A DNA stretch of 64,000 bases from contig JBKGZM010000001.1 of assembly GCA_046545575.1 (NCBI GenBank), positions 2,729 through 66,728 of the forward strand, written 5' to 3'. Source of the stretch: Dehalococcoidia bacterium. Lineage in GTDB: Bacteria > Chloroflexota > Dehalococcoidia > SZUA-161 > SpSt-899. The notes below the pieces were generated by a model. The model saw only the letters and a program-made list of their open reading frames with translations, was not told the origin of the DNA and did no database searches. Positions 23,787 through 36,117 of this stretch are shown here, piece after piece (the first letter of the stretch is position 1; every line of letters begins with the position of its first letter). A program made the translations under genes and the position numbers.

Positions 23787-23863
23787 CTGTGGCAACCGAG
23801 GTCGGTTAATCAACCTTAACTGACCTTTAATCAATGAAATCAATATACAAAAGGGGTGTGCAA

Positions 23864-26800
23864 ATGGAAGAGCCAAGAATCGGTGTTTACATTTGTCACT
23901 GTGGAAGTAACATCGCGGGAACGGTGAACTGTGAGGACGTATCCGCTTTCGCGCAGGATCTGCCTGGAGTGACCATAGCTCGCGACTACAAGTACATGTG
24001 TTCGGACCCCGGGCAGAACCTCATCAAAGAGGACATCAAAAACCTCAATGTCAACCGTGTTGTTGTAGCTTCCTGCTCGCCGCGGATGCACGAACCCACA
24101 TACCGACGCTGTATTCAGGAAGCAGGATTAAATCCATACCTGTTTGAGATGGCCAATATCAGGGAACATTGCTCCTGGGTTCACCCAAACGAACCTGAGA
24201 AAGCTACGGAAAAGGCTAAAGCGCTGGTTCGCGGCGCAGTACAGAAAGTCTACTATCACGAGCCACTGGAGACAAGGGAGGTTCCGGTAAATCCCAGTGT
24301 CTTGATTATGGGTGGAGGAATTGCAGGTATCCAGGCCGCTCTCGAAATCGCCAGTTCTGAAAACAAGGTATACTTGGTAGAACGTGAGCCTTCTATTGGC
24401 GGTCACATGGCTCAACTCGACAAGACCTTCCCTACCCTTGACTGTTCAGCCTGTATCCTCACCCCCAAGATGAGTCTTGTAGGAGCTCATCCAAATATCG
24501 AGCTCCTGACTTACAGTGAGGTAGAAGAGGTAGCAGGCTATGTTGGCAATTTCGAGGTTAAGGTAAGGGAAAAGGCTCGATTTGTCGATGAAGAAAAATG
24601 CACCGGATGCGGTGAATGTACCAGGGCATGTCCTGTAGAAATCCCTTCCAAGTTCGAGTTGGGAATGACCAACACAAAGGCCATAGCAACGTCCTTCGCC
24701 CAGGCCGTTCCCAATGTCGCTTCCATCTATAAACGTGAGGGAGGTGCCTGGCCCCCCTGTCGCTTTACATGCCCCGCCGGAGTAAATGCTCAGGGGTACA
24801 TCGCCCTCATCTCTCAGGGCAATTTCAAGGAAGCGGCCGAGGTCGTGAGAAAAACCATGCCGTTCCCAGGCATTCTGGGGAGGGTATGTACACATCCATG
24901 CGAATCGGAGTGTGAGCGAGCAAAGCTCGATGAACCAATGGCCATCAGGGCTCTTAAGCGTTCAGCTGCTGACTATGAGAGGAAAGTGGGCAGGGAAAAA
25001 GCAAGCCCTGTAGAGATAACCAAGAAAGGGAAGATCGCGGTCGTGGGTTCAGGCCCAGCCGGCCTCGCATGTGCCTATGACCTCATACGCGAAGGATACC
25101 CTGTGACGGTATTTGAGGCAATGCCCGAAGCCGGGGGAATGCTTCGGTACGGCATTCCCGAATATCGCTTGCCAAAGGACGTGCTGGACAGCGAGATCAG
25201 CTACATAGAGGAACTTGGAGTAGAGATCAAGACAAACAATCCGATCAACGATATCGGTCAGCTTTTCAACGAGGGGTATAAAGCCATATTCATGAGTAAC
25301 GGCGCCTGGACAAGCCAGAAGATGAGAATAGAAGGGGAGGATGCAAACGGGGTGCTCCATGCGCTGGACTTCCTGAAGCGCGTCAATTCCGGAGATCAAA
25401 CCCAAATAGGCAAAAAGGTAGCCGTTGTCGGCGGTGGCAATGCTGCCATCGATGCTGCCAGGGTAGCATGGCGATTAGGCGCTGAGGAGGTAAGCATCGT
25501 CTACCGGCGCTCACGGGAAGAGATGCCCGCGGAAAAGAGTGAAATCGAGGAAACTGAAAGGGAAGGTATCAACATACAGTTCCTGGCAGCACCAAACAAA
25601 GTTCTAAGTGAAGGCAATAAGGTCAGTGGCATAGAGTGCACGCGAATGGAACTAGGTGAGCCTGATGCCAGTGGCCGACGTCGGCCCGTGCCCGTAAAAG
25701 GGTCTGAGTTCACTCTGGATGTAGACAACGTCATCATTGCCATCGGACAGGGCGTCGACAAGGAAGCACTGCCTGAGGAGCTTGAATACACTCAATGGAA
25801 TACCCTCTCAGTTGATGAGATTACTTTGGAGACGAACATCGACGGCGTATTCGCCGGTGGTGACGTAGTTTCCGGCCCAGCCTCGGTAATCGACGCTGTT
25901 GCTGCAGGCAAGGAAGCCGCTACATCAATTGACCGCTACATCAGGGATGTGGACATGAAAGAGGGCAGACCAGAGGAGAGGAGAAAGGTGTCCGATGTGC
26001 CCAAAGAGGGTGTTGCCAGTGCTTCGAGAAGTTCCATGTCCACCATTGAAGTTGATAAGCGGGTCCGTTCCTTCGCTGAAGTCGAGCAGGGCTTTGATGA
26101 AAATACAGCAATAGAGGAAGCCAAGCGCTGCTTGAATTGTGCCGGGTGTGCGGATTGTCGAGAGTGCGAGAAGGTCTGTGAGGCCGGGGCCATCAATCAC
26201 AGCATGCAGGACGAGATCCTGAACCTGGAAGTAGGAAACATAATCGTAACCACTGGCTTCCAAGCCTTCGACCCAACACCGATTTACCAATACGGGTATC
26301 ATCGCCTGGATAATGTTGTTACCGGCCTGGAGTTCGAACGTCTGATAAGCGCATCAGGTCCAACCGAAGGGCATATAGCACTTAAGAATGGAGAAGAGCC
26401 GGATAGTGTGGCTATTATCCATTGTGTAGGAAGCCGGGATGCCAAATACCACGAGTACTGTTCGCGGGTCTGCTGCATGTATTCCATGAAGTATGCCCAT
26501 TTACTCAGGGAACACGTCCCGAACGCCAGGATATATGAATTCTACATTGACCTGAGATGCTTCGGCAAAGGCTATGAAGAATTCTACAACCGGATGCTGA
26601 AGGAGGATATCACCTTCATTCGCGGCCGGCCCGGCGAGATCACACAGGAGGACGGCAAACTGGTAGTCCATGCCGAAGATACGCTGGCTTCCATCATGCG
26701 TGATATACCGGTCGACATGGCAATCCTGAGCATAGGCCTGGAGCCACAGGAAGATGCCGATGAGGTCTCCAAACTACTCAAGATGAGCAGAAGCGCGGAT

Positions 26801-27205
26801 GGCTTCTTTATGGAGAGTCATCCCAAGCTAGAGCCAGTATCCACACCCACAAAGGGAGTATTCATCGCCGGCTGCTGCCAGGGGCCCAAGGATATCCCTG
26901 ACACGGTAGCTCAGGCTTCAGGGGCAGCGGCGGAGGCTCTGGCCATGATCAGCAGAGGAAAGGTTGAAGTGGAAGCAGCTACCTCCGTGGTGGACGAAGA
27001 CCTTTGCTCCGGCTGCAAAACATGTGTATCACTATGCCCCTATGGCGCGATTTCGTTCGATGAAGAGAAAAAGGTGGCTGTCATAAACGAGGTGCTGTGC
27101 GAAGGGTGTGGTCTATGTGCCGCTACCTGCCCTTCAGGCGCTATCAAGGCCAGGCACTTCACGACACAGGAGATCATGGCGCAGATCGAGGGCATTCTGG
27201 TTTGA
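23864..27205 (+). CDS. hdrL: HdrA-like flavoprotein with an inserted NfnB/GltD-like NAD(P)H:FAD module (HdrL-type)
   Basis: HdrA N-terminus (RIGVYICHCGSNIAG; IMGGGIAGIQAA). A GltD-like insert spans about 24750-25950 (PPCRFTCPAG; VVGSGPAGLACAYDL; VVGGGNAAIDAAR). It is followed by an HdrA C-terminus (HCVGSRD..YCSRVCCMY) and a terminal 2x[4Fe-4S] region (CSGCKTCVSLCP; CEGCGLCAATCP). ATG 23864 follows AAAGGGG. Confidence 0.8.
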   Translation: MEEPRIGVYICHCGSNIAGTVNCEDVSAFAQDLPGVTIARDYKYMCSDPGQNLIKEDIKNLNVNRVVVASCSPRMHEPTYRRCIQEAGLNPYLFEMANIREHCSWVHPNEPEKATEKAKALVRGAVQKVYYHEPLETREVPVNPSVLIMGGGIAGIQAALEIASSENKVYLVEREPSIGGHMAQLDKTFPTLDCSACILTPKMSLVGAHPNIELLTYSEVEEVAGYVGNFEVKVREKARFVDEEKCTGCGECTRACPVEIPSKFELGMTNTKAIATSFAQAVPNVASIYKREGGAWPPCRFTCPAGVNAQGYIALISQGNFKEAAEVVRKTMPFPGILGRVCTHPCESECERAKLDEPMAIRALKRSAADYERKVGREKASPVEITKKGKIAVVGSGPAGLACAYDLIREGYPVTVFEAMPEAGGMLRYGIPEYRLPKDVLDSEISYIEELGVEIKTNNPINDIGQLFNEGYKAIFMSNGAWTSQKMRIEGEDANGVLHALDFLKRVNSGDQTQIGKKVAVVGGGNAAIDAARVAWRLGAEEVSIVYRRSREEMPAEKSEIEETEREGINIQFLAAPNKVLSEGNKVSGIECTRMELGEPDASGRRRPVPVKGSEFTLDVDNVIIAIGQGVDKEALPEELEYTQWNTLSVDEITLETNIDGVFAGGDVVSGPASVIDAVAAGKEAATSIDRYIRDVDMKEGRPEERRKVSDVPKEGVASASRSSMSTIEVDKRVRSFAEVEQGFDENTAIEEAKRCLNCAGCADCRECEKVCEAGAINHSMQDEILNLEVGNIIVTTGFQAFDPTPIYQYGYHRLDNVVTGLEFERLISASGPTEGHIALKNGEEPDSVAIIHCVGSRDAKYHEYCSRVCCMYSMKYAHLLREHVPNARIYEFYIDLRCFGKGYEEFYNRMLKEDITFIRGRPGEITQEDGKLVVHAEDTLASIMRDIPVDMAILSIGLEPQEDADEVSKLLKMSRSADGFFMESHPKLEPVSTPTKGVFIAGCCQGPKDIPDTVAQASGAAAEALAMISRGKVEVEAATSVVDEDLCSGCKTCVSLCPYGAISFDEEKKVAVINEVLCEGCGLCAATCPSGAIKARHFTTQEIMAQIEGILV

Positions 27206-27223
27206 GCTTTGTCATGTGTGGAT

Positions 27224-28312
27224 ATGGAACAGATTCAGTCTCCGCGGATGCAGCAAGAGCAGCGGCATGTTCTTCGCATAGAGCAAGCCAACCTCCTGCA
27301 GATGTCTGAGGAGGAATTTCAGAGCTTAGTTGCTCAAATAGAAAAGAGCTCTCTCTTTAAGAAGCTCTACAAATCAGAAAACATAATCCATTACCAGCGA
27401 TTCCCCAAGACTGATATCTCCGCTCGCTGCTACGAGCTCAAGGAAAACATCCTCGCTGACGAGGGCTCTCTCGATGTGGAGCCCCTTCTGCAGCAGAGAG
27501 GGGAAGTGGTGGAGCTTATACAAAAGATAGGGCTGGAGAAGTTCAAGGAGTTCTTCCTCTTTCCCGACCCCGAGATTACCGCAGAGCATATCGCACAGGA
27601 GTGTAATATAAGTCTCTCCCAGGTGCACAGGATAAACGAATTCATCACCGACTTTTCCGCCATGAGCGAGTTCTATCATCCTTCAGCGATCAGCCCGGAG
27701 GAGAGAGTCCATTACTCCAAGGTCGCTTCAATAGAACGAGCACATGACGGCTTTGTTATCGGCTATTACCCCCCATCACTTGCCAGGGGAAGATATTCGA
27801 TTAACTACGAAAAATTTGAGAAAATAATAAATGAGAGGTTAACTGAGGCAGAGGGTAAGGAAGCAAGGAAGCTGTTCAGGAAACTGGAGTTGATAAATGT
27901 GCGCAAAGATACGCTGACGCAGATATTGCAAAATGTGGTGGAGAAGCAGAAACTATATTTGGACACCGGGGATGCGATGTCTCTCCTTCCGTTAAGTCAG
28001 AAGGAAATGGCCAACCAAATAGGACTGGATTCAAGCACGGTCAGCCGTACTATTCACGGGAAAAGCGTGGAGACGCCATGGGGAGAGGAGAAACCGATTA
28101 AAGATTTCTTCGCACATCCCAAGGACTTCAAGAAAGAGGCGCTTAAGAGAGTCTTTGAATCCGAAAGACGACCTCTCAGCGACCAGGCGATCAAAGAGAA
28201 ACTGGAGGAGTCAGGTATATTACTTTCCCGGCGCTCGATAGTGAACTTGAGGCAGGAGCTGAGAATGCCTTCATCACGAAAACGGTTTAAGAAACAGGAA
28301 AGCACAAAATGA
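27224..28312 (+). CDS. rpoN: Compact sigma-54 (RpoN) family sigma factor homolog
   Basis: Gln/Leu-rich region I (MQQEQRHVLRIEQANLLQMSEEEF). HTH segment LPLSQKEMANQIGLDSSTVSRTIHGKSVETPWGEEKPIKDFF. RpoN-box-like C-terminus PLSDQAIKEKLEESGILLSRRSIVNLRQELRMPSSRKR, compared with the canonical ARRTVAKYR. About 362 aa. Confidence 0.75.
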   Translation: MEQIQSPRMQQEQRHVLRIEQANLLQMSEEEFQSLVAQIEKSSLFKKLYKSENIIHYQRFPKTDISARCYELKENILADEGSLDVEPLLQQRGEVVELIQKIGLEKFKEFFLFPDPEITAEHIAQECNISLSQVHRINEFITDFSAMSEFYHPSAISPEERVHYSKVASIERAHDGFVIGYYPPSLARGRYSINYEKFEKIINERLTEAEGKEARKLFRKLELINVRKDTLTQILQNVVEKQKLYLDTGDAMSLLPLSQKEMANQIGLDSSTVSRTIHGKSVETPWGEEKPIKDFFAHPKDFKKEALKRVFESERRPLSDQAIKEKLEESGILLSRRSIVNLRQELRMPSSRKRFKKQESTK

Positions 28313-30234
28313 GTGTTGTGTACACCATAAAGGATAAATGCAAGGAATGCTACGCATGTGTCCGTAGCTGCCCTGTAAAAGCTATTAGGGTTAGAGAGCG
28401 GAAAGCCGAGGTCTTGAGGGATCGGTGTGTGGCCTGCGGCACGTGTATTAATGTCTGCCACGCAGGCGCAAAGAAATACGAAAGCGATATCGGGCTTGCT
28501 TGGCAATTACTGCGTGAAAATGCACCTGTCATAGCCGTTTTGTCGACCTCGTTCCCAGCAGGCTTTCCTGAAGTCCGCCCGAGGCAGCTCGTCACTGCCC
28601 TTAAGAAACTCGGATTCAACGAGGTTATGGAGGCTGCTTTTGGCGCTGAACTGGTTGCGCGCGAATACCGCAGGCTCTTCGATGAGAACAAAAAGGCTCC
28701 AATGCTCTCTTCTACCTGCCCGGCGTTTGTATCCATGATAGAGAAATTCTATCCTCAATTGATAAACAACTTAGCGCCCACTGTCTCACCAATGATAGCC
28801 ATGGGCCGAGTTATCAAGTGGAAATACAATCCAAATGCTAAAGTTGTCTTTGTGGGCCCATGTATTTCTAAGAAACTCGAGAAGATAGATGAAAAACTCT
28901 CTGGCGTAATCGATGCCGTCCTTACCTTTCCCGAGTTAAAGGAGATGTTTGCAGCCAAAGAGATTGATCCTGCCTCTGAAGAGGAATCACAATTCTCCGG
29001 GCCAAAGTCCAACCTCGGGCATCTATTTCCCATCTCCGGAGGATTGCTAAAGGTGACCGGAATTCCCGGCGACATTTCCACTACTGACGTCGTCTGGGCC
29101 GAAGGAAGGAGACGAGCTCGATGGTGTGTTGATGATCTCGCCCAGAACCGGATCGCCACCCGATTCCTAGATGCCTACTTCTGTGAAGGATGTATCAACG
29201 GCCCAGCAATCGGTAATGAGTTACGTACAACGGAAAAAAGAAGGATCGTTACCGAACACTTTGTGAATGAGTCTAATCCTGCGCAGGCTGAGAAAGACAT
29301 CCAAGAGTACAGCGGAATCGATCTGAGTCGCAAGTTTACAAATAGATTCAGCTCTCTGGAGCAACCCCGTGAGGAAGATGTAGAGGAAGTCCTTAATCAG
29401 ATCGGTAAGGCATCTCCAGAAGATCAACTTGACTGTGGCGCCTGTGGCTATGCTACCTGTAGGGAGCTGGCCGTAGCAGTGTCTCAGGGGCTGGCCGAGG
29501 TAGAGATGTGCTGGCCATATCTGTTTCGCAAGCTCAAGGATGCTCAGGAACAACTTATTCAAGCGGAGAAATTAACATCACTGGGGCAAATGGCGGCGGC
29601 TATCGCCCATGAAATCAATAATCCACTGGCGGGAGTTCTGACCTACACCAAACTTCTGATGAAAAAGGCCGAAAACGATTCTCTGACCAAGGAGATGTCC
29701 AGGGAGTATCTCCCGAAGATGGAGTCAGAGGTGACCCGCAGCTCCCGAATAATTCGCAATCTGCTGGATTTTGCCAGACAAACGGAGCCGATGTTACGTG
29801 AAACAGACATAAATCAAACCATAGAAAAAGCTCTATCTCTCGTAGGACACCAGGCGCAGATACAGAATGTCGAGGTCAAAAAAGAGCTGAGCCCTGACTT
29901 GCCCAAAATCACAGCTGATTTCGACAAATTACAGCAGGTGTTTACCAACCTTATTCTGAACGGGGTTCAGGCGATGCCGGATGGTGGAACGCTCACGTTA
30001 CGGAGCCAGCCCACGGGCAATGGCCATGTCAGGATTGACATTCAGGACACCGGATATGGCATACCCAAAGAGAACTTTCGCAATCTGTTTACGCCTTTCT
30101 TCACCACCAAAGAAAAGGGGAAGGGGGTAGGCCTGGGACTGGCTGTAGTGCATGGCATTATAGAGCAGCATAAAGGAAAGATCAATGTCCAGAGCGAGGA
30201 AGGGAAGGGAACGAGGTTCAGTATCTATTTGTAA
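28309..30234 (+). CDS. Sensor histidine kinase with an N-terminal 2x[4Fe-4S] ferredoxin, an [FeFe]-hydrogenase H-domain-like module and an RnfB-type Fe-S motif
   Basis: CKECYACVRSCP and CVACGTCINVC. H-cluster-like motifs SSTCPAFV, VGPCISKKLE and FCEGCINGP. CGACGYATCRELA...C. HisKA H-box AAIAHEINNPL. HATPase N and G boxes (NLILNGVQAM; DTGYGI; GKGVGLGL). The start overlaps the rpoN-like stop as ATGA. Confidence 0.8.
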   Translation: MSVVYTIKDKCKECYACVRSCPVKAIRVRERKAEVLRDRCVACGTCINVCHAGAKKYESDIGLAWQLLRENAPVIAVLSTSFPAGFPEVRPRQLVTALKKLGFNEVMEAAFGAELVAREYRRLFDENKKAPMLSSTCPAFVSMIEKFYPQLINNLAPTVSPMIAMGRVIKWKYNPNAKVVFVGPCISKKLEKIDEKLSGVIDAVLTFPELKEMFAAKEIDPASEEESQFSGPKSNLGHLFPISGGLLKVTGIPGDISTTDVVWAEGRRRARWCVDDLAQNRIATRFLDAYFCEGCINGPAIGNELRTTEKRRIVTEHFVNESNPAQAEKDIQEYSGIDLSRKFTNRFSSLEQPREEDVEEVLNQIGKASPEDQLDCGACGYATCRELAVAVSQGLAEVEMCWPYLFRKLKDAQEQLIQAEKLTSLGQMAAAIAHEINNPLAGVLTYTKLLMKKAENDSLTKEMSREYLPKMESEVTRSSRIIRNLLDFARQTEPMLRETDINQTIEKALSLVGHQAQIQNVEVKKELSPDLPKITADFDKLQQVFTNLILNGVQAMPDGGTLTLRSQPTGNGHVRIDIQDTGYGIPKENFRNLFTPFFTTKEKGKGVGLGLAVVHGIIEQHKGKINVQSEEGKGTRFSIYL

Positions 30235-30273: not shown

Positions 30274-31674
30274 ATGCAGGATGCTGACACCACACGACAA
30301 TCCCCGGATATGAAAAGCCAGATCAAAATCCTCGCTGTCGATGATGAAGAGACAGTCCGCGAATCACTAAAGGACTGGCTCACCGACTCAGGGTATCAGG
30401 TGCTGGTCGCTGAAGACGGATACAAAGCACTCGACATTATTAAACGTGAGAAGATAGGCATACTCATAGCCGATTTAGTAATGCCGGGCATAGACGGCAT
30501 TGAACTCATGAGAAGAACCAAGGAAATCTCCCCTGACACGGGTGTAATCATCATAACTGCGTACGGAAGCGTACCCAGTGCTGTGTCCGCGATGCATGAA
30601 GGGGCCTATGACTATATCGAGAAGCCATTCTGCCCCGAACGGGTGGAGTCGCTCCTTGAGAAGTTGATGGAACACCAGAGATTGGTAGAGGAAAACCGAG
30701 TTCTCCGCGAACAATTAGAAGACCATTACCGTTTTGAGAACATCATCGCTAAGAGCCACAAAATGCACAAGATTTTCGATGTGGTCAAAACCGTGGCCAA
30801 GAGCAATGCCAGTGTCCTCATCACCGGCGAAAGCGGGACCGGCAAGGAGCTTATTGCACGGGCCATCCATAATCTAAGTCCCCGCCGGGACAAGCCTTTC
30901 GTGGATGTGAGTTGCGCTGCATTACCTGAGAGCCTCCTCGAGAGCGAGCTATTCGGGCATGAGAGAGGGGCTTTTACCAGCGCTGTAAATCAAAGAAAGG
31001 GAAGATTTGAACTCGCTCACCGCGGGACCCTTTTCCTCGATGAAATAGGAGAGATAAGCACCAACATGCAGGTACACCTGCTCAGAGTCCTGGAGGAACG
31101 GGAGTTCACTCGCGTCGGGGGCACTGAGCCCATAAAGACCGATGTACGCCTCATTTCAGCCAGCAACAAAAACCTGAAGGAGGCGATAAACGAGGGAGAA
31201 TTCAGGGGAGACCTCTACTATCGCCTGAACGTAGTCAGCATTGAACTCCCGCCCCTCAAGGAAAGAAGCGAAGATATCCCCCTGCTGGCTCAACATTTTC
31301 TGAACAAGTTCGCCCGGGAGAACCAGAAAGGTGAGATTAAGCTTTCTTCCGAGGCCATGGACTTCCTTATGAAGTACGACTGGCCCGGGAATGTAAGGGA
31401 GCTAGAGAACACTATTGAGAGGGCGGTCGTGCTCACACAGGATAGCACGATCAACGTAGATGATCTGGCAACACAAAACCTACCTTCTGCTCAGCAATCT
31501 TCAAGTGAAGGAAGCCTTGAAGATATGGAAAAGCAACACATTGTAAATGTCCTCAAGGAGACCAGCGGGAACCACACCGAAGCAGCGAAACGGCTCGGGA
31601 TCACCCGGATGACCCTTTACAAGAAAGTCAAGAAATACGGAGTGGATGTAAACAAATTAAGCAGTGCTGTATAA
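30274..31674 (+). CDS. Sigma-54-dependent response regulator (NtrC family: REC, AAA+ and Fis-type HTH)
   Basis: REC domain (ILAVDDEE..IADLVMPGIDG), Walker A GESGTGKE, GAFTGA-loop variant ERGAFTSA, an ESELFGHE box and a C-terminal HTH (NHTEAAKRLGITRMTLYKK). Confidence 0.9.
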   Translation: MQDADTTRQSPDMKSQIKILAVDDEETVRESLKDWLTDSGYQVLVAEDGYKALDIIKREKIGILIADLVMPGIDGIELMRRTKEISPDTGVIIITAYGSVPSAVSAMHEGAYDYIEKPFCPERVESLLEKLMEHQRLVEENRVLREQLEDHYRFENIIAKSHKMHKIFDVVKTVAKSNASVLITGESGTGKELIARAIHNLSPRRDKPFVDVSCAALPESLLESELFGHERGAFTSAVNQRKGRFELAHRGTLFLDEIGEISTNMQVHLLRVLEEREFTRVGGTEPIKTDVRLISASNKNLKEAINEGEFRGDLYYRLNVVSIELPPLKERSEDIPLLAQHFLNKFARENQKGEIKLSSEAMDFLMKYDWPGNVRELENTIERAVVLTQDSTINVDDLATQNLPSAQQSSSEGSLEDMEKQHIVNVLKETSGNHTEAAKRLGITRMTLYKKVKKYGVDVNKLSSAV

Positions 31675-31700
31675 TTTGTTTACAGTCCAGGGGCAGCCCC

Positions 31701-31734
31701 GGGTAGGCCAGGCCGACGTCGGCCTGGCCTACCC
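31701..31734. repeat. Perfect 34-nt GC-rich palindrome
   Basis: GGGTAGGCCAGGCCGACGTCGGCCTGGCCTACCC with no T-run after it. Its centre is about 105 bp upstream of the -24 element at 31822. Confidence 0.9.
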
Positions 31735-31768
31735 GTATTAGACACGCAGAACACCCGTAGCAACCCAG

Positions 31769-31817
31769 GGGAGGAGGGCGGTCCGCCGACGGCGGACCGC
31801 CCTCCTCCCTTTTCTTT
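31769..31817 (+). terminator. Strong rho-independent terminator after the kinase/activator genes
   Basis: A 20-bp perfect stem (GGGAGGAGGGCGGTCCGCCG-A-CGGCGGACCGCCCTCCTCCC) followed by TTTTCTTT. Confidence 0.8.
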
Positions 31818-31820
31818 AAT

Positions 31821-31837
31821 TGGCAACAAAATTGCAT
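31821..31837 (+). promoter_or_regulatory. Sigma-54 (-24/-12) promoter
   Basis: TGGCAACAAAATTGCAT matches the consensus TGGCACG-N4-TTGCW with exact GG-to-GC spacing. It lies 26 nt upstream of ATG 31863 and an RBS GGAGGTG follows it. Confidence 0.65.
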
Positions 31838-31862
31838 ATACATTAGGGTGGAGGTGATAGAG

Positions 31863-32936
31863 ATGATGAAGGGAGAAGAGAACAAAAGAAATGAAATCCA
31901 ACCTAAGGAGGTGGACAATATGAAACGGCAACCTGTACTGATAGTTGAGGATGAAAACATCATGCGAGAGTCCCTCAGGGACTGGCTGGCAGACAGCGGT
32001 TACGAGGTAACCACAGCCGAAGATGGTGAACAAGCGCTGCAAATGCTCGGAGAGCAAGAATTCGGCGTGGCGGTTCTTGACCTCAAACTACCGGGTAAGG
32101 ACGGCGTTGAGGTCCTGAAAGAAGCCACAAACCGGCAACCGAACCTGAAGGGCATCATTATCACCGCCTATCCGTCTGTGGAGACGGCGGTAGAGGCGAT
32201 GAAGTACGGCGCAACCGACTACCTGGTCAAGCCGGTCTCCCCGGATGAACTCGAGGACCTGATACAAAAGACCCTGGGTCCCGTACAGGCCGAGATCAGG
32301 CCACAGCCCGCTGCCGAGGAAGCTGTAGAGACCGAAACAGAAGCGGCCGAAGTCGAGCAACCGGCAGTTGAAGAGGAAGTCCCCAGCATAAGCGAAGCCG
32401 AAGCCCCTGCACACATGCAGGAGGGGAAGAACCTCTTGAAGGCTGGGCGCTTCGATCAAGCGAAAAGGGAATTCCAGGCCGTGATAAGCGTACAGCCTGG
32501 CAACCTGGAAGCACGGCAGTACCTCCGCCAAGCGAAGGAAGAGGTAGCAAAATCAGCAAAAGCTGCTGAAGCCCGTCCAGAAGTGGGCAAGCCATGCGTG
32601 TGGATGAAGCTGGGACTCGTCTCCTACCGCATGTGCAATCGGGACTACGATTGCTTCGCCTGCGAGTTCGACCAGATGATGCAGGAGAGATTAGCAACCG
32701 AGGAAGCGGAAGTAGACAAGGCAGTGGAGCGACTCAAGGAATTGCCAGGCAACCAGCGGGTTTGCCGCTACGCCCTTAAGGGAGAGGTCGCTCACCGGAC
32801 ATGTAGCCACCTTTTCAACTGTGCACAGTGTGAGTTCAATCAAATGATGGAAGATGCATTCCTGCAAAAGCTGACTGCGGAGCAGGAAGCGCTGCGCAAG
32901 AAGAAAGACAGTTGGTGGTGGAGTTACTGGAGTTAA
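31863..32936 (+). CDS. Response-regulator receiver protein with an acidic linker, a TPR-like segment and a duplicated C-x12-C-x5-C-x2-C module
   Basis: REC domain (VLIVEDEN..VLDLKLPGKDG..ITAY). Two copies of C..x12..C.x5.C.x2.CEF[DN]QMM. A Trp-rich tail SWWWSYWS. ATG 31863 lies 6 nt after GGAGGTG, whereas the track start is a GTG at 31848. Confidence 0.75.
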   Translation: MMKGEENKRNEIQPKEVDNMKRQPVLIVEDENIMRESLRDWLADSGYEVTTAEDGEQALQMLGEQEFGVAVLDLKLPGKDGVEVLKEATNRQPNLKGIIITAYPSVETAVEAMKYGATDYLVKPVSPDELEDLIQKTLGPVQAEIRPQPAAEEAVETETEAAEVEQPAVEEEVPSISEAEAPAHMQEGKNLLKAGRFDQAKREFQAVISVQPGNLEARQYLRQAKEEVAKSAKAAEARPEVGKPCVWMKLGLVSYRMCNRDYDCFACEFDQMMQERLATEEAEVDKAVERLKELPGNQRVCRYALKGEVAHRTCSHLFNCAQCEFNQMMEDAFLQKLTAEQEALRKKKDSWWWSYWS

Positions 32937-32952: not shown

Positions 32953-32986
32953 TATAGCCCGCCCGGGTATACCCGGGCGGGCTATA
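32953..32986. repeat. Perfect 34-nt palindrome
   Basis: TATAGCCCGCCCGGGTATACCCGGGCGGGCTATA, immediately followed by TGTATAAT (a -10-like sequence). Confidence 0.9.
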
Positions 32987-33062
32987 CGTGTATAATAGTA
33001 TAACAAAACCAGATAAACGCATCCCTGAAGAACGATTTCTAAAACCATAAGGAGGTAACCAT

Positions 33063-33530
33063 ATGGCTTATGAGGCGGTTGAAACGAGTACAGTAGAGGG
33101 GATCATAAATAGATACTCAGGAGACAGTTCAGCCCTTATTCAAGTCCTTCTGGACATCCAGCGTGAAAATCGGTGGTTGCCAAAAGACACCCTGAAACTG
33201 GTCAGTCAAAGTCTCGGTGTTCCATTAACTCAAGTCTACCATATAGCTAGCTTCTACAAGGCCTTCAGTCTTATACCCAAAGGGCGAAATCAGGTTACGG
33301 TTTGCCTGGGTACTGCGTGCCATACCAGGGGTGCGCCTCGTCTTCTGGACAGGGTTTCCACAAGCCTGAAGCTGAACCCGGGCGAGACCTCGGAAGACAT
33401 GCGCTTTAGCCTGGACACGGTCAACTGCCTCGGCTGCTGTGCTCTGGGACCAGTGATGATGGTCGGGGAGCAGTACTACAGCAACCCTTCCACGGAAGAG
33501 TTGGAGAATATCTTCTCCGCATGCGAATGA
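33063..33530 (+). CDS. nuoE: NuoE/HoxE-like [2Fe-2S] thioredoxin-fold subunit
   Basis: VCLGTACHTRGA ... VNCLGCCALGP in a 155-aa protein with RBS AAGGAGG. Confidence 0.85.
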   Translation: MAYEAVETSTVEGIINRYSGDSSALIQVLLDIQRENRWLPKDTLKLVSQSLGVPLTQVYHIASFYKAFSLIPKGRNQVTVCLGTACHTRGAPRLLDRVSTSLKLNPGETSEDMRFSLDTVNCLGCCALGPVMMVGEQYYSNPSTEELENIFSACE

Positions 33531-33560
33531 TCCCGCAATCAATATATTAAGGAGGGAGCT

Positions 33561-35489
33561 ATGCCAAAATTGAACTCAGCCTCTGACCTGGAGAATTTGA
33601 GACAAGAAGTGGTAAGCAAAAGAGACCCAAACAAGCTCTGTGTTACCATATGCTCGGGCACAGGATGCCGCGCATATGGTAGCGAACAGGTCGCTGAAAC
33701 CTTTGCCGAAGAGCTCTCAAAAAACGGGCTTAAAGATAAGGTCGACATACGTCGGACGGGGTGCCACGGGTTCTGCGAGAGAGGCACCCTCGTCGTCATT
33801 TTCCCAGAGGAAATATGTTACCTGAAGGTCAAACCAGATGATGTTCCCGAAATCGTCTCCACCACCTTACAGGAAGGGAAGGTAGTGGATCGGTTACTGT
33901 ACGAAAAAAGCGACGGCGAAAAAGTAGTTCACGAAAGCGAGATTCCCTTTTATAGCAACCAGAATAGAACAGTGTTCGGGAACAATAGATTTATTGACCC
34001 CAAGAAAATAGACGATTATCTGGCCCTGGGCGGCTACAAGGCCATTTCCAAGGCGCTTTTCGACCTCTCCCCCGAGCAAGTAATGGACGAAGTTAAGGCC
34101 GCCAACCTGAGGGGAAGAGGAGGCGGGGGATTCCCCGCAGGAATAAAGTGGGAGACCACTCGTGATGCTCCGGATGAACCAAAGTATGTCATCGTCAACG
34201 CCGATGAGGGCGACCCGGGCGCTTACATGGACAGGAGCTTGCTCGAGGGCAACCCCCACAGCGTGCTGGAGGGCTTGACTATCGGGGCCTACGCCATTGG
34301 CTCACACCAGGGCTTTATTTATGTGCGTCAGGAATATCCCCTAGCTGTGGAGAATCTGAACATCGCAATAGAGCAGGCACGGGAACACGGACTTCTCGGG
34401 GAAAATATCCTCGGCTCGGGTTTCAATTTCGATGTCACGGTACATCGTGGTGCTGGGGCTTTTGTTTCGGGAGAGTCCAGCGCTCTCATGACCGCAATAG
34501 AGGGCAAGGTAGGCGAACCCAGGCCAAAATACATTCGCACCGCCACAAGCGGCATCTGGGACAAACCCAGCGACCTGAACAACGTTGAGACCTGGGCCAC
34601 TGTTCCCTTGATAATCAACAAAGGCGCTGACTGGTTTACTGGTATCGGGACCGACAGAAGCAAAGGAACAAAAATATTCTCACTCGTGGGCAAAGTAAAT
34701 AATACAGGGCTTGTAGAGGTGCCCATGGGGACCACCATTCGTGAGATAATCTACAATATCGGCGGAGGCATTCCTGGAGGGAAGAAATTTAAGGCCGTTC
34801 AGACCGGTGGTCCCTCTGGAGGGGTTATTCCCGAAAGCCTCATCGACCTCCCCGTCGACTACGATGAGCTGGCCAGGGCGGGCTCGATGATGGGCTCTGG
34901 CGGCATGATCGTGATGGACGAAGATACCTGCATGGTAGATATCGCCAGGTATTACCTCAACTTCCTGGCAGGAGAATCCTGTGGCAAGTGCGTCCCATGT
35001 CGGGAGGGAATCTACCAGATGCTCAAGATACTGAACAGGATCTGCGATGGGGAAGGGCAAGATGGAGACATCGAACTCCTGGAGGAAATCGGGGAGGTGG
35101 TCAGGGACTTCTCGCTCTGCGCACTTGGTGCCACAGCCCCTAACCCTGTGCTCAGCACAATCTCGTATTTCCGCGACGAGTACGAGGCCCACATAAAGGA
35201 GAAGCGTTGCCCAGCTGGCGTTTGCAAGTCGCTTATCAGCTACTACATCGATCCGGATAAGTGTCAGGCCTGTATGATCTGCCTCAGGAACTGTCCTGTT
35301 GGAGCCATAAGCGGCGATAAGAACGTGATCCATGTCATAGATCAAGATAAGTGTACCAAATGCGGAACCTGCTTTGAGGTTTGCCCCTCACGCTTTGGTG
35401 CCGTTAAAAAGATCTCTGGAGAGGAACTGCCAGAAGCAGTCCCGGCAGGAACGCCGGTAAAGCGAGAAAAAGGAGGCAAGAATGGCTGA
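33561..35489 (+). CDS. nuoF: NuoF/HoxF-like NAD(P)H-binding FMN/Fe-S subunit with an N-terminal [2Fe-2S] domain and a C-terminal 2x[4Fe-4S] region
   Basis: GRGGGGFPAGIKWE, ESCGKCVPCREG, and C-terminal CQACMICLRNCP and CTKCGTCFEVCP. Confidence 0.9.
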   Translation: MPKLNSASDLENLRQEVVSKRDPNKLCVTICSGTGCRAYGSEQVAETFAEELSKNGLKDKVDIRRTGCHGFCERGTLVVIFPEEICYLKVKPDDVPEIVSTTLQEGKVVDRLLYEKSDGEKVVHESEIPFYSNQNRTVFGNNRFIDPKKIDDYLALGGYKAISKALFDLSPEQVMDEVKAANLRGRGGGGFPAGIKWETTRDAPDEPKYVIVNADEGDPGAYMDRSLLEGNPHSVLEGLTIGAYAIGSHQGFIYVRQEYPLAVENLNIAIEQAREHGLLGENILGSGFNFDVTVHRGAGAFVSGESSALMTAIEGKVGEPRPKYIRTATSGIWDKPSDLNNVETWATVPLIINKGADWFTGIGTDRSKGTKIFSLVGKVNNTGLVEVPMGTTIREIIYNIGGGIPGGKKFKAVQTGGPSGGVIPESLIDLPVDYDELARAGSMMGSGGMIVMDEDTCMVDIARYYLNFLAGESCGKCVPCREGIYQMLKILNRICDGEGQDGDIELLEEIGEVVRDFSLCALGATAPNPVLSTISYFRDEYEAHIKEKRCPAGVCKSLISYYIDPDKCQACMICLRNCPVGAISGDKNVIHVIDQDKCTKCGTCFEVCPSRFGAVKKISGEELPEAVPAGTPVKREKGGKNG

Positions 35490-36117
35490 AGTTACCTTAA
35501 CCATAGATGGAAGAGAGGTCAAAGCAGAGGAAGGAACGACCATTCTGGAAGCGGCACAGAGCGCAGGTTTTGATATCCCCAATCTCTGTTACCACCCCAT
35601 GCTAGCCCCCTACGGCGCTTGCCGGCTGTGCATGGTGGAGATAGAGCGGGGCAAGCGAACACGGTTGGTGTCCTCCTGTGTATATCCTGTAGAGGACGGG
35701 CTCACCGTATATACAGAGTCTGACCGAGTGGTCAAGGGACGCAAGATGTTGCTGGAGTTCCTGTGGGCACGTGCACCCGGCTGTAAGGCGATAAGGGACT
35801 ACGGCACCAGATATGGCATAAGCGGTATGGAATCCATACGAGAATTCGGCGAAGCCTATGGGGCAGCTGCAAGCAAGACCAAGTTCGAGATAGAGCCAAC
35901 CTTCTGCGTTCTTTGCGGCCTGTGCGTTCGGTATTGTGCAGAGATCAAGAAGAAGAACGCCATCGGATTCATTGGCAGGGGCACGGAACGGGAGGTAATG
36001 TTCTTCCCTGAGATAGCGCGCGAGGAATGCCCACAATGCGAGGAGTGCTTCTCCGTGTGCCCAACAGGTCTGGTCCGGCTCATGTTTGACCTAGTGAAAG
36101 AGCCGCAGTCCCCGTAA
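35482..36117 (+). CDS. hoxU: NuoG N-terminal / HoxU-like [2Fe-2S]+[4Fe-4S] subunit
   Basis: VTLTIDGREVKAEEGTTILEAA..CYHPMLAPYGACRLCMVEI, followed by CVLCGLCVRYC and CPQCEECFSVCP. Confidence 0.8.
   Translation: MAEVTLTIDGREVKAEEGTTILEAAQSAGFDIPNLCYHPMLAPYGACRLCMVEIERGKRTRLVSSCVYPVEDGLTVYTESDRVVKGRKMLLEFLWARAPGCKAIRDYGTRYGISGMESIREFGEAYGAAASKTKFEIEPTFCVLCGLCVRYCAEIKKKNAIGFIGRGTEREVMFFPEIAREECPQCEECFSVCPTGLVRLMFDLVKEPQSP

Follow-up and report, generated by a model that had tools for sequence, protein, structure and literature searches.

A conserved sigma-54-type promoter as the probable single output of a compact sigma-54 circuit in a Dehalococcoidia genome

We consider it highly likely that positions 31821-31837 of the window (the whole 64-kb stretch of Dehalococcoidia DNA analysed here) form a genuine sigma-54-type promoter, very probably the only one in the genome of this uncultured bacterium, and that it works by the five-step circuit proposed below. 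Taken by itself, the promoter belongs to a known kind and is in no way exceptional. What is unusual is the setting, where a private sigma-54 circuit driven by a hydrogenase-like kinase would have it as sole output. The element is as follows:

31821 to 31837, + strand: sigma-54-type -24/-12 promoter element TGGCAACAAAATTGCAT, recognized by its spacing, its conservation in 16 other loci and its family-matrix score

The GG of the element (31822-23) and its GC (31834-35) are 12 nt apart with 10 bases between them, which is the canonical sigma-54 spacing and is exactly what the sequence-only reading had described. Compared with TGGCACG-N4-TTGCW, the consensus from experimentally verified promoters that served as the starting motif of Francke et al. 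2011 (PMC3162934), the element agrees at 10 of the 12 specified positions, and the mismatches are C to A at the sixth and G to C at the seventh. It is intergenic and correctly oriented, its -12 C being located 28 nt ahead of the ATG at 31863, with a Shine-Dalgarno sequence between the two. In its GG/GC spacing, its TGGCA and TTGCA cores, its location upstream of a gene and the nearby activator gene, it resembles canonical sigma-54 promoters. On the other hand, it differs from them in its family consensus, TGGCAAGAAAATTGCA, in which the sixth base is A rather than C and the conserved spacer is rich in A; in the T-tract of a terminator, which abuts the -24 element; and in the predicted leader, which is very short (approximately 16 nt).

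The same reading had found no site of comparable quality elsewhere in the window, and indeed TGGCA-N6-TTGCW matches the 64 kb only once. However, 28 of 100 shuffles of the window also contained at least one match, and a single pattern match is therefore without significance. A genome-wide scan with a sigma-54 matrix, which had been proposed as a check, gave a divided answer. The genome comprises 2.13 Mb in 131 contigs, with 51% G+C and a completeness of approximately 94%. With a generic sigma-54 matrix, which is approximate and follows a published compilation, the 31821 site scored 13.7 bits, and 53 sites in the genome reached at least 13.5 bits; over the whole genome, these generic-matrix sites showed no intergenic enrichment. 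Among intergenic, correctly oriented sites less than 300 nt from a start codon, the 31821 site ranked at the top, and the chance of such a site in this particular 188-nt gap on the same strand is approximately 0.002. By sequence alone, the motif is no better than chance; the case is carried by context and conservation. Since there was no intergenic enrichment and the generic matrix did not single out the site, a family-specific matrix was used instead, built from the other loci only, with this genome left out. Under this matrix the site scored 27.7 bits and was the one outlier, the next-best site in the 2.1 Mb scoring 18.5 bits and lacking the GC. As roughly 6% of the genome is absent from the 131-contig assembly, another sigma-54 or another such promoter may be hidden in that part.

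The regulator genes that precede the element, together with the gene before them, are the following:

23834 to 27205, + strand: HdrA/GltD-like flavoprotein of 1123 aa, by Pfam
27224 to 28312, + strand: compact sigma-54 homologue of 362 aa (Pfam Sigma54_DBD, E = 1e-25, the sole match in the genome)
28309 to 30234, + strand: sensor histidine kinase with an [FeFe]-hydrogenase H-domain-like sensor and FeS domains (Pfam Fe_hyd_lg_C, Fer4, FeS, HisKA, HATPase_c)
30274 to 31674, + strand: NtrC-type activator with REC, AAA+ sigma-54 interaction and HTH_8 domains (Pfam; PF00158, E = 6e-73)

The only Sigma54_DBD gene of the genome therefore lies within 4.6 kb upstream of the promoter, on the same strand. 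Likewise, the activator gives the only strong PF00158 match and is the only true bEBP of the genome; two weak matches elsewhere fall in open frames of approximately 820 aa, which are presumably other AAA+ proteins. When the family profile of the compact sigma-54 was compared with the PDB, sigma-54 chains alone were matched, over the C-terminal 150-200 residues. For its AlphaFold model (pLDDT 77.8), the 27 best fold matches were all sigma-54/sigmaN chains. Across the family, the RpoN-box residues R336, R337 and R343 are conserved, as are S271 and R275 of the HTH. Pfam detected neither the activator-interacting (AID) nor the core-binding (CBD) domain in this protein. Both the profile and the predicted fold mark the compact 362-aa protein as a genuine sigma-54, one that would bind core polymerase. 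In the activator, the sigma-54-contact loop (30967-30984) reads GAFTSA; it reads GAFTGA or GSFTGA in 17 Dehalococcoidia-type orthologous activators and GAFTDA in one distant Clostridia locus (L032). The Dehalococcoidia-type orthologues, whose loops are canonical, also possess an HTH_8 domain. The GAFTSA form may weaken or alter coupling, or may be an assembly or population variant. As regards the neighbouring flavoprotein, the compact sigma-54 gene begins 4-19 nt past the stop of the HdrA/GltD-like gene (27205-27224) and may be co-transcribed with it here; in L017 and L023, the HdrA/GltD-like gene is on the opposite strand.

Among relatives, the cassette is sporadic: a compact sigma-54, 51-56% identical, was found in 5 of 60, and each of the five carries exactly one sigma-54 and one bEBP. 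A scan of species genomes yielded 22 loci, mostly in MAGs of Dehalococcoidia/Dehalococcoidales. Wherever the contigs of Dehalococcoidia-type loci are long enough, the order is fixed, namely compact sigma-54, hydrogenase-like kinase, activator and receiver-domain gene; the kinase is conserved within the cassette in other loci. Between the activator and receiver genes, TGGC-N5-AATTGC is present in 16 other loci, with the consensus tttTGGCAAGAAAATTGCA. The proteins of these 16 loci are 48-59% identical, which makes it unlikely that the loci are recent copies of one another, and their flanks are unalignable. One Elusimicrobia locus (L034), with TTGGCATAAAATTGCC, was left uncounted, its spacing being one base short.

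For the promoter alignment, 17 non-redundant loci, including that of this genome, were anchored on the element. The AAT at +9 to +11, which lies outside the constraint of the search pattern, is invariant across the 17 loci, and the other free positions are nearly so. Pairwise identity averages 0.86 within the core and 0.30 in the flanks on either side of it. When the five relatives were scanned with the loose pattern TTGGC-N5-AATTGC, each genome gave one to four matches. As second promoters, the three most plausible extra matches were rejected; all are within ORFs, two of them clearly in long ones. From these comparisons, the six genomes each appear to have one sigma-54, one activator and one conserved promoter. 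The view that the promoter is a direct target of the adjacent activator gains support from the sole sigma-54 and sole bEBP upstream, the conservation of the element, its uniqueness under the family matrix and the terminator-promoter junction kept in 12 of 17 loci.

The gap in front of the element holds a terminator:

31768 to 31818, + strand: intrinsic terminator of the regulator operon, with a 20-bp stem and a T-tract, recognized by its fold and T-tract and kept in relatives

Its stem of 20 pairs (31768-31810; -49 kcal/mol, z = -9.2) is followed by TTTTCTTTAAT. The structure has the form of an intrinsic terminator, a stem and then TTTTCTTT, and begins 94 nt past the ntrC stop. From the end of the stem to the promoter element there are 9-10 nt, and from the end of the T-tract approximately 3-4 nt, so the earlier description of a 20-bp-stem terminator just before the promoter holds. 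A hairpin with a T-tract abutting TGGC is found in 12 of the 17 loci, with differing stem sequences, which indicates that the insulating terminator is part of the conserved design. Against known RNA families, only sub-threshold hairpin matches were obtained; the best relevant one was Chloroflexi-1, with 20.5 bits against a cut-off of 80.

Two further palindromes lie upstream of the terminator:

31647 to 31684, no strand: inverted repeat TGTAAACAAATTA-N12-TAATTTGTTTACA, candidate enhancer (UAS), conserved and spanning the activator stop codon
31700 to 31735, no strand: GC-rich, REP-like palindrome, a dispersed repeat with 22 genome copies

The repeat at 31647-31684 is perfect, and its centre is approximately 156 bp upstream of the -24 GG. 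The form TGTAAA-N26/27-TTTACA is kept in approximately 12 of the 17 loci, centred 84-156 bp upstream of the -24 GG; an enhancer would be looked for at roughly 80-200 bp. In the genome there is one perfect TGTAAA/TTTACA copy, and the sole other match to a relaxed pattern (C5:7867) has the right arm TTGACA. Complementarity inside the repeat is often weak, which favours a DNA site over an RNA hairpin. The TGTAAA/TTTACA repeat is thus the best enhancer candidate, and the activator may bind it. At L026, the unit of repeat, terminator and promoter occurs as a tandem duplicate, approximately 10 to 215 nt past the activator end (tblastn end 11380). The upstream repeat copy there, at the activator end, has lost its right arm, and the non-coding copy is intact, 84 bp before the gene-proximal promoter.

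The GC-rich palindrome of 34-36 nt at 31700-31735 was also considered as an enhancer and rejected: its core, GGCCGACGTCGGCC, has 22 copies in the genome, mostly intergenic, and the palindrome is not present in the orthologous loci. It belongs to a perfectly palindromic repeat family, GGGTAGGC-nGGCCGACGTCGGCCn-GCCTACCC, found at 31700-31735, at C1:28401, 69300 and 78715, and at 18 other places. In appearance, this 22-copy family resembles REP- or MITE-type elements.

Downstream of the element, the predicted leader is followed by the first gene and then by the diaphorase genes:

31847 to 31862, + strand: predicted transcription start (approximately 31847) and 16-nt leader with the Shine-Dalgarno sequence GGAGGTGA (31850-31857), from sigma-54 geometry
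31863 to 32936, + strand: receiver/Cys4 gene with its ATG at 31863, by Pfam (Response_reg and a weak TPR match) and translation
32953 to 32986, no strand: perfect 34-nt palindrome after the receiver gene (-34.9 kcal/mol, no T-tract, single copy in the genome)
33063 to 36117, + strand: nuoE-, nuoF- and hoxU-like diaphorase genes, by Pfam, possible distal members of the transcription unit

By standard sigma-54 geometry, transcription would start near 31847, 12 nt past the C of the GC. The AGGGTGGAGGTGATA-ATG arrangement, with the ATG 26-27 nt past the -12 C, is found in this genome and in L021, L022, L025 and L026. In L017 and L018, the ATG follows the -12 C by 21-24 nt, with a Shine-Dalgarno sequence between. 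A second good Shine-Dalgarno/ATG pair lies within the first gene (31905/31920). The product of this gene contains a receiver domain, TPR-like helices, two C-x12-C-x5-C-x2-C-EF(D/N)QMM modules and a Trp-rich tail.

The promoter is followed by a receiver-domain gene in every Dehalococcoidia-type locus, and in most loci further receiver-domain genes come after it. In L031 (4603-8499) and L035 (11553-15088), the order is promoter, receiver-NuoE fusion, nuoF and receiver-HoxU fusion; the fusions combine REC with a 2Fe-2S thioredoxin-like domain (NuoE) and REC with Fer2_4 and Fer4 (HoxU). The diaphorase subunits themselves would then bear phospho-receiver domains. In L030 and L027, nuoEF-hoxU is on the opposite strand. 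The sequence-only reading had assigned the promoter to the receiver/Cys4 gene and possibly to nuoE/F/hoxU. The former stands, as the conserved target of the promoter in these loci is a receiver-domain protein, whereas control of the diaphorase genes is not general, the link to them being frequent and not universal. In the window itself, a TATAAT at 32990-32995 is located 3 nt after the 34-nt palindrome and 70 nt before nuoE. The palindrome and TATAAT region may be an independent diaphorase promoter; read-through from the receiver gene is also possible.

On the basis of these features, a circuit of five steps may be proposed. The regulator operon, encoding the compact sigma-54, the kinase and the activator, would end at the terminator at 31768-31818, and given the strength of this terminator, no read-through into the target gene would be expected. 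RNA polymerase with the compact sigma-54 would then sit on TGGCA-N6-TTGCA as a closed complex. The kinase would sense H2 or redox state through its FeS/H-domain and phosphorylate the receiver domain of the activator. Once phosphorylated, the activator would assemble upstream, most likely at the 31647-31684 repeat, loop across the terminator DNA and open the promoter with ATP. Finally, transcription would start near 31847 and give an mRNA with a 16-nt leader and the receiver/Cys4 sequence, possibly extending into nuoE-nuoF-hoxU.

Other explanations of the same sequence have to be weighed against this circuit. That the motif is a functionless chance match beside a terminator would fit the roughly 50 equal generic matches in the genome, their lack of intergenic enrichment and the 28 window shuffles that match the simple pattern. 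This is nevertheless hardly credible, because the element has the same position in 16 other loci, with invariant free positions amid random flanks, and because the site is the single genome outlier under the family matrix. Somewhat less remote, and still improbable, is the explanation that TTGGCAA...TTGCA is a direct-repeat operator of another regulator, for example an OmpR- or PhoB-type protein with repeats one helical turn apart, which serves a nearby sigma-70-type promoter. The halves TTGGCA and TTGCA are indeed direct repeats 12 nt apart, and the downstream ATA...AGGGTGGAGGTGATA is partly conserved too. However, this conserved downstream block is a Shine-Dalgarno sequence with a start codon, and the spacing is too tight for a -10 element ahead of the Shine-Dalgarno sequence. 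Nothing like a sigma-70 -35/-10 pair turned up on the + strand of the 31675-31862 gap, and the cassette has no conserved winged-helix response regulator. Moreover, if the motif were such an operator, the sigma-54 and bEBP of the cassette would have no promoter anywhere in the genome.

An alternative for the enhancer carries far more weight. The promoter may be real and yet be served from somewhere other than the TGTAAA/TTTACA repeat, with the activator binding elsewhere or acting from solution without an enhancer; we regard this as a substantial possibility, though not the favoured one. Rrp2 of Borrelia burgdorferi is reported to act without an enhancer. In the present loci, the right arm is lost or degenerate in 5 of 17 (L017, L020, L023, L025 and L035), the left arm is constrained by coding sequence, and a palindrome of 38-39 bp exceeds the width of a typical NtrC-family dimer site. 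Against this, in approximately 12 loci the right arm, which is non-coding, stays at a constant offset, and the often weak complementarity of the interior speaks against a mere RNA hairpin; the genome has only the one perfect copy; the intact copy in L026 is the non-coding one, 84 bp before the gene-proximal promoter; and the activator retains its HTH_8 domain. 

Two known systems offer comparisons. In Cupriavidus necator, the HoxBC-HoxJ-HoxA system controls sigma-54-dependent hydrogenase promoters. The circuit proposed here shares its overall path, from a hydrogenase-derived sensor through a histidine kinase and an NtrC-family regulator to a -24/-12 promoter before hydrogen/NADH-linked redox genes. 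Where that system has a separate [NiFe] sensor, the present kinase carries a fused [FeFe]-type H-domain in this role, and the sigma-54 is a compact private copy within the cassette; furthermore, the signal is a proposal, and the first conserved target is a receiver-domain protein, not a hydrogenase. The Rrp2-RpoN-RpoS pathway of Borrelia burgdorferi and the proposed circuit share their economy: each has a single sigma-54, a single bEBP and, in essence, a single direct promoter. In Borrelia, however, the genes do not lie together and a further sigma factor is the target, whereas the present cassette, found sporadically in 5 of 60 relatives, has its sigma factor, kinase, activator, terminator and promoter side by side.

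HydS proteins are putative sensory [FeFe] hydrogenases, and HydDB places them in the histidine-kinase-linked group C1. The kinase at 28309-30234 belongs to this histidine-kinase-linked type (HydS, HydDB C1). For want of a defined output, the function of such 'sensory' [FeFe] hydrogenases still awaits proof, and our literature search found no paper on an output promoter of the kinase-linked HydS class, nor one on a circuit of compact sigma-54, hydrogenase-like kinase and activator. The 31821 site is a concrete candidate for such an output, one that can be fused to a reporter. So minimal a circuit, with a single sigma factor, a single activator and a single promoter within 5 kb, could be rebuilt in a laboratory host to find out what the hydrogenase-like domain senses.

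Sigma-54 is found in only some Chloroflexi (Francke et al. 2011, PMC3162934), and the cassette presents it as a private module of sporadic inheritance in Dehalococcoidia, a class for which the literature search returned no published account of it. A broader idea, to which we give slightly less than an even chance, is that these Dehalococcoidia use sigma-54 in an ECF-like manner. A portable cassette would then unite the compact sigma-54 and the sole activator with a hydrogenase-like H2/redox sensor kinase, and would also bring an enhancer, a terminator for insulation and the regulon's one promoter. As outputs it would have receiver-domain proteins, in some cases fused to NuoE and HoxU, which would place a diaphorase/electron-bifurcation module under phosphorylation control.

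The compact sigma-54 family itself is large, with more than 700 protein clusters in metagenomes. Among the best 120 of these cluster matches, the lengths are 346-444 aa, nearly all 350-380, with Sigma54_DBD and no AID or CBD match; some of the 120 also have generic HTH matches. Most of the 120 are unnamed, and the few with names are called hypothetical, sigma-54-like or transposase. In the Clostridia MAG locus L032 (674-8821), a 37% identical compact sigma-54 is accompanied by a different sensor, a hybrid kinase of the GAF-PAS-HisKA-HATPase-REC type, and by two bEBPs, and a similar element, CTGGCAGATAAATTGCT, is located 125 nt before an HTH-cupin gene. The family of compact sigma-54 proteins therefore extends beyond the hydrogenase-like cassette.
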